Part shown: in pieces, positions 39,077-39,990 of the stretch | How the letters are laid out: every line of letters begins with the position of its first letter | How positions within the stretch are numbered: the stretch's first letter is position 1 | Assembly (NCBI RefSeq): GCF_041248615.1 | Contig: NZ_CP158426.1 | DNA length: 64,000 nucleotides | Reading direction: 5' to 3' (one strand) | Source of the DNA: Escherichia coli | GTDB lineage: Bacteria; Pseudomonadota; Gammaproteobacteria; Enterobacterales; Enterobacteriaceae | The notes under the pieces: generated by a model | Seen by the model: the letters and a program-made list of their open reading frames with translations, nothing else | Told to the model about the DNA's origin: nothing | Database searches by the model: none | Position numbers and translations under genes: made by a program

Positions 39077-39525
39077 AGGTAATTTAAAAACGGTTCTGTG
39101 AAAGTGACACGAACCGATCTCCATCGATGTTACTCACCGATCTCCTTCACGGTAATACGCAGGTCATGGCGCTAGCGCTGAATAAAATCACGAAAGTAGG
39201 TATGCCTGAGAGCGTGCGTATTGCCTGAAAGCACAACTAGCTACGGGGCTCTTACCCTAAATCAGATTTTTTCAACAAAGCCCAACTGGTATTAGAAAAC
39301 CTGTTGAATATTTAATACAACCATGTTAAATAAAAGAAATAAAGAACTGTTATATCTATTTTCTTAATGGTGAATCATTCAGCAATACCGAATAAAGTAG
39401 AATAGTTTTTAGAAATGCATCACATTTTCTTGTGTATACCCATATAGGAGATGTACATCCATAAAAGATAGAATAATAAAGTTAAATTGCCATGACGATA
39501 ATCACTTTCGAATAGGAGTAAATTA

Positions 39526-39915
39526 ATGAAGAAACAAAAATTCTTTATTGTGAGTTCTATACTTGTAATGTGTTTATCTACCAGTCATATATCTTTGGCT
39601 TCCGGACTGGATAAAAATATGCAGAGCCTTGCAAGAAATATGAGCACTCTACAATCCTCTGGTGATAAAAAATCTCTATTAAATGCTCTTGATATGATGG
39701 ACAAAGCTGTAAATGCTTCCATGAATACTCTTCCTGAAAAAATAAACAGCAACGATAAAGTCGCAGTGGAAAGTTATAAGAATGAGTTGAAGAAACTACA
39801 AAATGAAATCAATCTTGCAAAAGAGAAGGTTGAGTCGGGGAATATAGAGTCACTACGTGATGCTCTGGATAAAATGAATAATATAAAACTGGAAGGCCAC
39901 CGAAAATTCAGATAA
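39526..39915 (+). CDS. Cytochrome b562-like periplasmic protein
   Basis: 129 aa with signal peptide; alignable to cytochrome b562 including the N-terminal Met (DKNMQSL) and C-terminal His (...EGHRKFR) heme-ligand positions. Confidence 0.55.
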   Translation: MKKQKFFIVSSILVMCLSTSHISLASGLDKNMQSLARNMSTLQSSGDKKSLLNALDMMDKAVNASMNTLPEKINSNDKVAVESYKNELKKLQNEINLAKEKVESGNIESLRDALDKMNNIKLEGHRKFR

Positions 39916-39951
39916 ATAATATTCTATAGAAAAATTTAATTTTATTTCTAA

Positions 39952-39990
39952 ATACGGCAAAGTATTTTACTGTAATTTGCCGTATTTAAT
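39952..39990 (+). terminator. Hairpin downstream of the cytochrome b562-like gene
   Basis: Perfect 10-bp stem ATACGGCAAA / TTTGCCGTAT with a 14-nt loop; weak T tract. Confidence 0.35.

Follow-up and report, generated by a model that had tools for sequence, protein, structure and literature searches.

The window analyzed here, a stretch of 64,000 nt (64 kb) from an Escherichia coli chromosome, carries a mosaic island beside the core gene ynjA. The cargo of this island comprises iha, remnants of an integrative conjugative element, PhoX, iron-ABC-transporter pseudogenes, and many IS elements, and the gene under study lies near its integrase end (Table 1). It is the only substantial open reading frame (ORF) between positions 39283 and 39990, running on the + strand from 39526 to 39915 and encoding 129 aa. 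A ribosome-binding site (RBS), AGGAG, lies at 39514–39518, 7 nt 5' of the ATG, and the opposite strand of the same interval holds a single ORF of 55 aa. The original prediction, made from the letters of the DNA without database searches, had described an intact, secreted paralogue of cytochrome b562 in AT-rich DNA. The intact 129-aa frame with its RBS was confirmed, and so was the composition, the GC content being 34.1% for the ORF against 48.7% for the window. The gene is an ordinary, if divergent, member of a known family and had been annotated before: its RefSeq/PGAP name is already "cytochrome b562" (WP_001354052.1). Rfam and tRNA scans gave no match in or near it.

Table 1. Features at the b562 locus, in window coordinates
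Feature	Position	Strand	Details and basis
ISEc12, IS21 family	36581..39161	+	istA 36774-38315, istB 38327-39076; ORFs, annotation
AT-rich upstream region, 33.8% GC	39162..39525	+	last ~150 bp conserved with paralogous loci
Putative signal peptide, residues 1-25	39526..39600	+	KKQK n-region, hydrophobic core, ISLA↓SG; read from sequence; CybC alignment
Mature b562 domain, 104 aa plus stop	39601..39915	+	Pfam PF07361; AF2 bundle; Foldseek
Axial ligand codons (predicted)	Met32 39619-39621; His125 39898-39900	+	
Hairpin	39950..39987	+	34 nt past stop; 12-bp perfect stem, 14-nt loop, weak T-tract
yebF-like pseudogene, frameshifted	40413..40765	-	ORFs, NCBIfam, PGAP
Decayed ecf1-ecf2-ecf3(cptA)-like genes	41562..43861	+	blastn vs pO157 locus L004; PGAP pseudogene flags
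Tyrosine recombinase, island edge	43930..45147	-	adjoins core gene ynjA 45305-45853; ORF list, annotation

An intact copy of the insertion sequence ISEc12, with terminal inverted repeats at 36581–36596 and 39146–39161, sits 364 bp upstream of the gene. Its right end maps to about 39161, since some 2200 other E. coli records match only the first 85–90 nt of the segment 39077–39530, and the junction between ISEc12 and the b562 gene is common to all 27 genomes with this allele. On the other side, the yebF-like gene has its signal-peptide part (40550–40765) and its C-terminal half (40413–40586) in different frames. Of the 114 positions in the NCBIfam YebF profile, only 64–111 are matched, and PGAP calls a 57-aa "YebF family protein" here. 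The ecf-like genes (polysaccharide deacetylase, GT4, and PEA transferase) are 80–85% identical to the pO157 ecf operon. The claim that the gene is intact unlike its neighbours is therefore mostly right, as only the C-terminal half of YebF is represented and the ecf1–3-like genes are pseudogenes, but it does not extend to the upstream ISEc12. Remnants of katP (tblastn with KatP), espP, or an AIDA-type autotransporter gene were not found within the 64-kb window. Plasmids were also searched for an intact ancestral b562-yebF-ecf arrangement; none was found, and only the ecf part matched. The ecf copy in the window is a chromosomal, frameshifted version of the pO157 LPS-modification operon that is cut off by the island integrase, with ecf4/lpxM absent.

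The protein was assigned to a family by profile, sequence, and predicted structure. The Pfam model PF07361 (Cytochrom_B562) scored 59.2 bits (cut-off 30, E = 6.7e-16), with residues 28–129 covering positions 2–102 of the 102-position profile, and nearly all PDB sequence matches were cytochrome b562 entries. The AF2 model is a four-helix bundle with a mean pLDDT of 79, reaching about 85–94 in the helices and falling below 50 at residues 1–21. Its best PDB matches in Foldseek were b562 structures (256b, 4er9) and BRIL fusions, with TM scores of 0.78–0.81 normalised to the 106-residue targets. Profile, sequence, predicted fold, and ligand conservation all agree on a b562-like paralogue, as had been proposed, and we are highly confident that the protein belongs to the cytochrome b562 family. 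The CybC equivalog model NCBIfam NF011632 scored 70.9 bits, under its cut-off of 130, and of 5426 complete E. coli genomes 5425 carried canonical cybC, in the pmbA-cybC-nrdG locus. Because cybC lies elsewhere in these genomes and the score stays below the equivalog cut-off, the window gene is a true additional paralogue.

We then compared the protein with E. coli CybC (PDB 256B), to which it is 21% identical in both BLASTP and phmmer. The alignment pairs Met32 with Met7 and His125 with His102 of mature CybC, so that the match at both heme ligands claimed by the original prediction is borne out. The two residues belong to six columns that are invariant among 19 diverse family members (M32, L55, M58, P70, L91, and H125), and the four non-ligand columns correspond to the pocket or core residues L30, M33, P45, and L68 of CybC. 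When the mature window protein is numbered, the ligand methionine is likewise residue 7 and the histidine becomes His100. These positions suggest that the window protein probably binds heme. The likeness to CybC extends to the precursor (about 128–129 aa), a putative Sec signal peptide with an aligned Ala↓X cleavage site, the four-helix bundle (predicted in the window protein), and an HxK[FY]R C-terminus. The window protein differs from CybC in a loop between helices 2 and 3 that is two residues shorter, and in the replacement of Tyr101 by Gly124 and of Phe65 by Leu88. The settings also differ: the window gene has 34% GC and lies on an island, whereas cybC occupies its core locus, and the window allele occurs in 0.5% of genomes, whereas cybC occurs in ~100%. 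The putative signal peptide shows n-, h-, and c-regions with small residues at -3/-1 (S-L-A↓S), its cleavage site aligning with that of CybC. A lipoprotein reading based on the motif VMC was rejected, as the Met at -1 is unfit for a lipobox and the Cys is missing in the paralogues.

The window allele was found on the chromosomes of 27 of the 5426 complete E. coli genomes, many of them from poultry, at 99.7–100% identity. The wider clade was present in 152 of these genomes, at 129 plasmid and 47 chromosomal places, for the most part on IncF plasmids in strains from poultry. Alleles of 67–89% identity occur within E. coli, most of them IncF plasmid-borne. In a profile search of 1.84 billion representative proteins, just 57 clusters reached E <= 1e-3, and only two full-length clusters fell below 1e-30, namely the clade of the window gene and a cluster of plasmid proteins linked to katP. 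The contexts of other family members are unrelated (pmbA, conjugative-element cargo, dsbC). The dN/dS of the window allele against other alleles of the orphan clade was 0.11–0.25, which shows, by this measure of substitution, that the protein is kept under purifying selection within the clade. Recent selection cannot be judged from the 27 carriers, because they are near-invariant. Alleles with frameshifts also occur in the databases: in P0005 the His is missing, and in P0048 and P0053 the N-terminus is altered. The literature search on this clade found no paper.

Among the closest relatives are the orphan alleles of IncF plasmids (P0016 and P0046 types), which belong to the subclade of the window gene, with 71–79% aa identity and a shared leader. 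The 3' hairpin of the window is present in one of these plasmid loci (L002), and, like the window gene, these alleles have PhoX nearby. Unlike the plasmid alleles, which are followed by an autotransporter gene, the copy in the window lies on the chromosome downstream of ISEc12 and lacks an autotransporter. In two plasmid subclades the b562 gene precedes a gene for a 1165-aa AIDA-I-type autotransporter, and one of the two has PhoX upstream. At 3498 bp, this gene has the size of APEC aatA. Between the loci L002 (11880–15727) and L005 (8853–12698), the autotransporters are 95.7% identical and the b562 genes 74%, so a recombination breakpoint lies between the two genes.

We further examined the relatives that accompany catalase-peroxidase genes. 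A plasmid group 42–46% identical to P0016, here called KatP-type b562, comprised 494 plasmid records, compared with about 493 E. coli plasmids carrying KatP at 80% identity or above. In every type inspected (pO157 and two other plasmid types), the KatP-type b562 gene lies 44–46 nt downstream of katP; in pO157 the gap is 46 nt and the order is katP-b562-espP-ecf1-4. In the clusters P0062 and P0064, the b562 gene lies 28–54 nt downstream of catalase-peroxidase genes whose products are 73–75% identical to KatP. Loci in which a KatP-type enzyme is followed by b562 at 28–54 nt span 1345–3988 in L004 (pO157, NZ_CP038350.1), 3743–6390 in L096, 3732–6375 in L097, 2755–5375 in L009, and 2756–5387 in L012. 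Several of the gaps contain a short GC-rich hairpin. All KatP-type plasmid enzymes inspected have Sec-type signal peptides with no twin arginine. Of the 80 diverse KatG loci listed by a GTDB scan with KatP, which come from other phyla and include no Enterobacterales, none had a b562 ORF within 5 kb; the pairing is thus not general to KatG and, on the loci covered, belongs to a narrow enterobacterial group. In the literature searched, we found no discussion of the katP-b562 pairing on plasmids.

In a neighbor-joining tree, which was built without Yersinia CybC, the window clade (bootstrap 100) and the katP-linked plasmid clade are sisters, united at a bootstrap of 100. The sister clade contains L7018 of pO157 and related katP-linked b562 proteins (WP_001172748.1, WP_046201743.1, and WP_032215195.1), with 50–59% identity over the mature part. 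These genes are AT-rich, like the window gene, and plasmid-borne, and their autotransporter and ecf surroundings recall the order b562-yebF'-ecf1'-3' of the window. They differ in lying 44–46 nt past katP, with which they are probably co-transcribed, whereas the window gene has a conserved leader of 150 bp. The window gene itself is not linked to katP or katY, there being no katP in the 64 kb, and is tied to them by descent only. As read from the gene surroundings, the window copy and the rest of its subclade have lost katP. Because the window holds no remnant of katP, espP, or an AIDA-type autotransporter gene, the link to a peroxidase is one of ancestry.

Published work bears on these relatives. 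The L7018 product of pO157 has been detected as a protein, at 6.3-fold higher levels in the piglet gut (PMC3686733). In Yersinia pestis, katY-cybC-cybB was identified as an operon by RT-PCR (PMC2231364), and in Yersinia pseudotuberculosis cybB, cybC, and the catalase-peroxidase gene respond together to H2O2, with an induction of 6.7–7.5 log2 (bioRxiv 10.64898/2026.03.04.709318). The Yersinia operon resembles the katP-linked relatives of the window gene in tying a b562 gene to a periplasmic catalase-peroxidase; in Yersinia the two are co-transcribed and co-induced by H2O2. It differs in being chromosomal and in including cybB, which encodes a membrane cytochrome b561, whereas nothing resembling cybB or katY lies near the window gene.

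The flanks of the gene were inspected for regulatory signals. The original prediction had also given the gene its own promoter region, and this claim found no confirmation: the sigma-70 consensus scan gave no site 5' of the gene on the + strand, and manual inspection revealed no convincing -35/-10 pair. The upstream ~150 bp are nonetheless conserved across all four subclades in an alignment with L002, L008, and L005, blastn homology to L002 beginning at 39435. A Fur-box-like site at 39491–39509 matches at 14 of 19 positions, a score reached in 3.6% of shuffles; in the paralogues it matches at 12 of 19 positions in two or is absent, and we count it a weak lead that does not amount to a finding. 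Downstream, the hairpin is real and longer than the perfect 10 bp first claimed, its 12-bp arms lying at 39950–39961 and 39976–39987. It folds with a dG of -19.4 kcal/mol (z = -4.4), and none of 200 shuffled sequences folded as well. No more than 4 of the stem pairs are G-C, and the stem is followed by the tail TTTAATAAT; the terminator scan made no call for the hairpin because there is no U-run. The hairpin core, ATACGGCAA/TTGCCGT, is kept in L002 and L008, where a single compensatory change turns AAA/TTT into AAT/ATT, and is absent in L005, so that two of the three other subclades retain it. The hairpin is probably a transcript 3' end or a stabiliser.

Taken together, we favour the reading that the window gene is an accessory, horizontally acquired b562 whose product is an exported carrier or holder of heme b, an orphan that has lost katP, with a periplasmic role in oxidative stress. 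To this statement as a whole we give a probability of about 0.6. The 129-aa precursor would be exported by Sec and cut after Ala25, and the 104-aa mature protein would fold into a four-helix bundle, holding one heme b non-covalently between Met32 and His125. The mature protein would then be a small soluble one-electron carrier or heme holder of the periplasm. Its gene would be orphan cargo between ISEc12 and the decayed yebF-like and ecf-like genes, with the leader and the 3' hairpin retained. The protein may lend redox or heme support to the oxidative-stress chemistry of the periplasm, its partner, if any, being another than KatP in strains that lack katP. The protein might reduce a peroxidase, or supply heme to an enzyme that is loaded in the periplasm. 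Peroxide defence is the likeliest arena because of the operon structure of the sister clade and the Yersinia data; drawn from this analogy, a role in peroxide defence as such is a tentative suggestion that we would not expect to hold for the window gene. The physiological role of CybC itself has been described as unknown, and the earlier statement that function is unknown still applies to the whole b562 family (PMC3349551).

One possible extension of this reading concerns the mobile-element b562 clade as a whole, that is, the window clade and its katP-linked sisters. These proteins could be dedicated periplasmic partners of Sec-exported catalase-peroxidases, donating electrons or heme b, although we think it rather improbable that they are. 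In the electron-donor version, electrons would pass from quinol through b561 and b562 to KatP, and KatP/KatY would act as a quinol-fed periplasmic peroxidase. If true, this would be the first physiological role for cytochrome b562, and the orphan subclade would be a version turned to a different periplasmic partner in E. coli associated with poultry. Few proteins serve as models and engineering tools as often as cytochrome b562, BRIL fusions being one example. The window gene alone is a modest result, an accessory gene in a decayed mosaic island. The wider point is that E. coli plasmids and islands carry divergent, selected b562 paralogues, and the tight coupling of the nearest relatives to katP offers a testable lead toward b562 in peroxide defence or periplasmic heme delivery.

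The gene may instead be silent, hitch-hiking cargo, an intact ORF left over from a plasmid virulence module, cut off by IS activity and heading for decay. Since all of its non-IS neighbours, the yebF-like and ecf-like genes, are pseudogenes, the window copy could be silent. The nearby ISEc12, the outcome of the promoter scan, and the low GC content would fit such a fate, AT-rich DNA being a typical target of H-NS silencing, as would the degraded alleles in the clade and an island that is a graveyard of IS elements. However, the ORF, the RBS, the conserved leader, and the 3' hairpin are all intact, the long-term dN/dS is far under 1, and the clade has been kept on many IncF plasmids. Weighing these points, we consider silence unlikely, though a serious competitor to the accessory heme carrier or holder proposed above.

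Another possibility is a periplasmic heme chaperone or buffer instead of an electron carrier. The protein would deliver heme b to exported apo-hemoproteins, KatP in the sister clade, or sequester free or host heme where KatP is missing. The KatP-type enzymes are Sec-exported, so their heme b has to be taken up in the periplasm, and the b562 genes that follow theirs so closely fit this idea, but we know of no experiment in which a b562 passes on its heme. The presence of iha and of iron-ABC-transporter remnants on the island would also fit, as would the Fur-like site upstream of the gene, yet the 14 of 19 matches of that site are not conserved in the paralogues. Under iron starvation of Y. pestis, CybC rises, being flagged as Fur-regulated, and KatY falls (PMC2835676), which would suit a heme buffer, whereas the cybB gene of the Yersinia operon, with its membrane b561, fits an electron chain better. 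A chaperone or buffer function thus appears distinctly unlikely. It is very improbable that the protein is a periplasmic four-helix bundle that has lost heme binding and taken on another job, for example as adaptor for a neighbouring autotransporter adhesin: the low identity to CybC, the changes to Gly124 and Leu88, and the position of the gene directly upstream of an autotransporter gene in three subclades could be read in this way, but the 19 diverse members show no variation at either axial ligand or at four residues of the pocket or core, the unequal identities in L002 and L005 point to mosaic recombination and not co-evolution, and the window copy has no autotransporter.

Finally, some features of the remaining island were recorded. 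A gene for a PhoX family phosphatase lies at 28543–30769, ~9 kb upstream of the b562 gene, with IS elements and pseudogenes between the two; it is 92.5% identical to the phoX-type gene that precedes the b562 paralogue by 1.2 kb on IncF plasmids (L005). Positions 1–18150 consist almost entirely of degraded IS elements (IS3, IS110, IS21/IS100, IS66, and IS630 families), with an intact amiC paralogue (8940–10199) midway. Just downstream of this paralogue, within the IS-rich stretch, a full-length match to the Rfam family of the Hfq-binding sRNA isrN was found at 10764–10906 on the + strand, with 138 bits against a gathering score of 44. The reference NZ_CP033635.1, almost identical in other respects, has at about 21220 an ISEc31 that is not in the window. 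This reference is also missing two ~1.3-kb segments of the window, at 25028–26341 and 32320–33634, which have inverted matching ends and flank the segment of SgcJ, PhoX, and the iron-ABC pseudogene. These segments look like IS copies in a composite-transposon-like structure.
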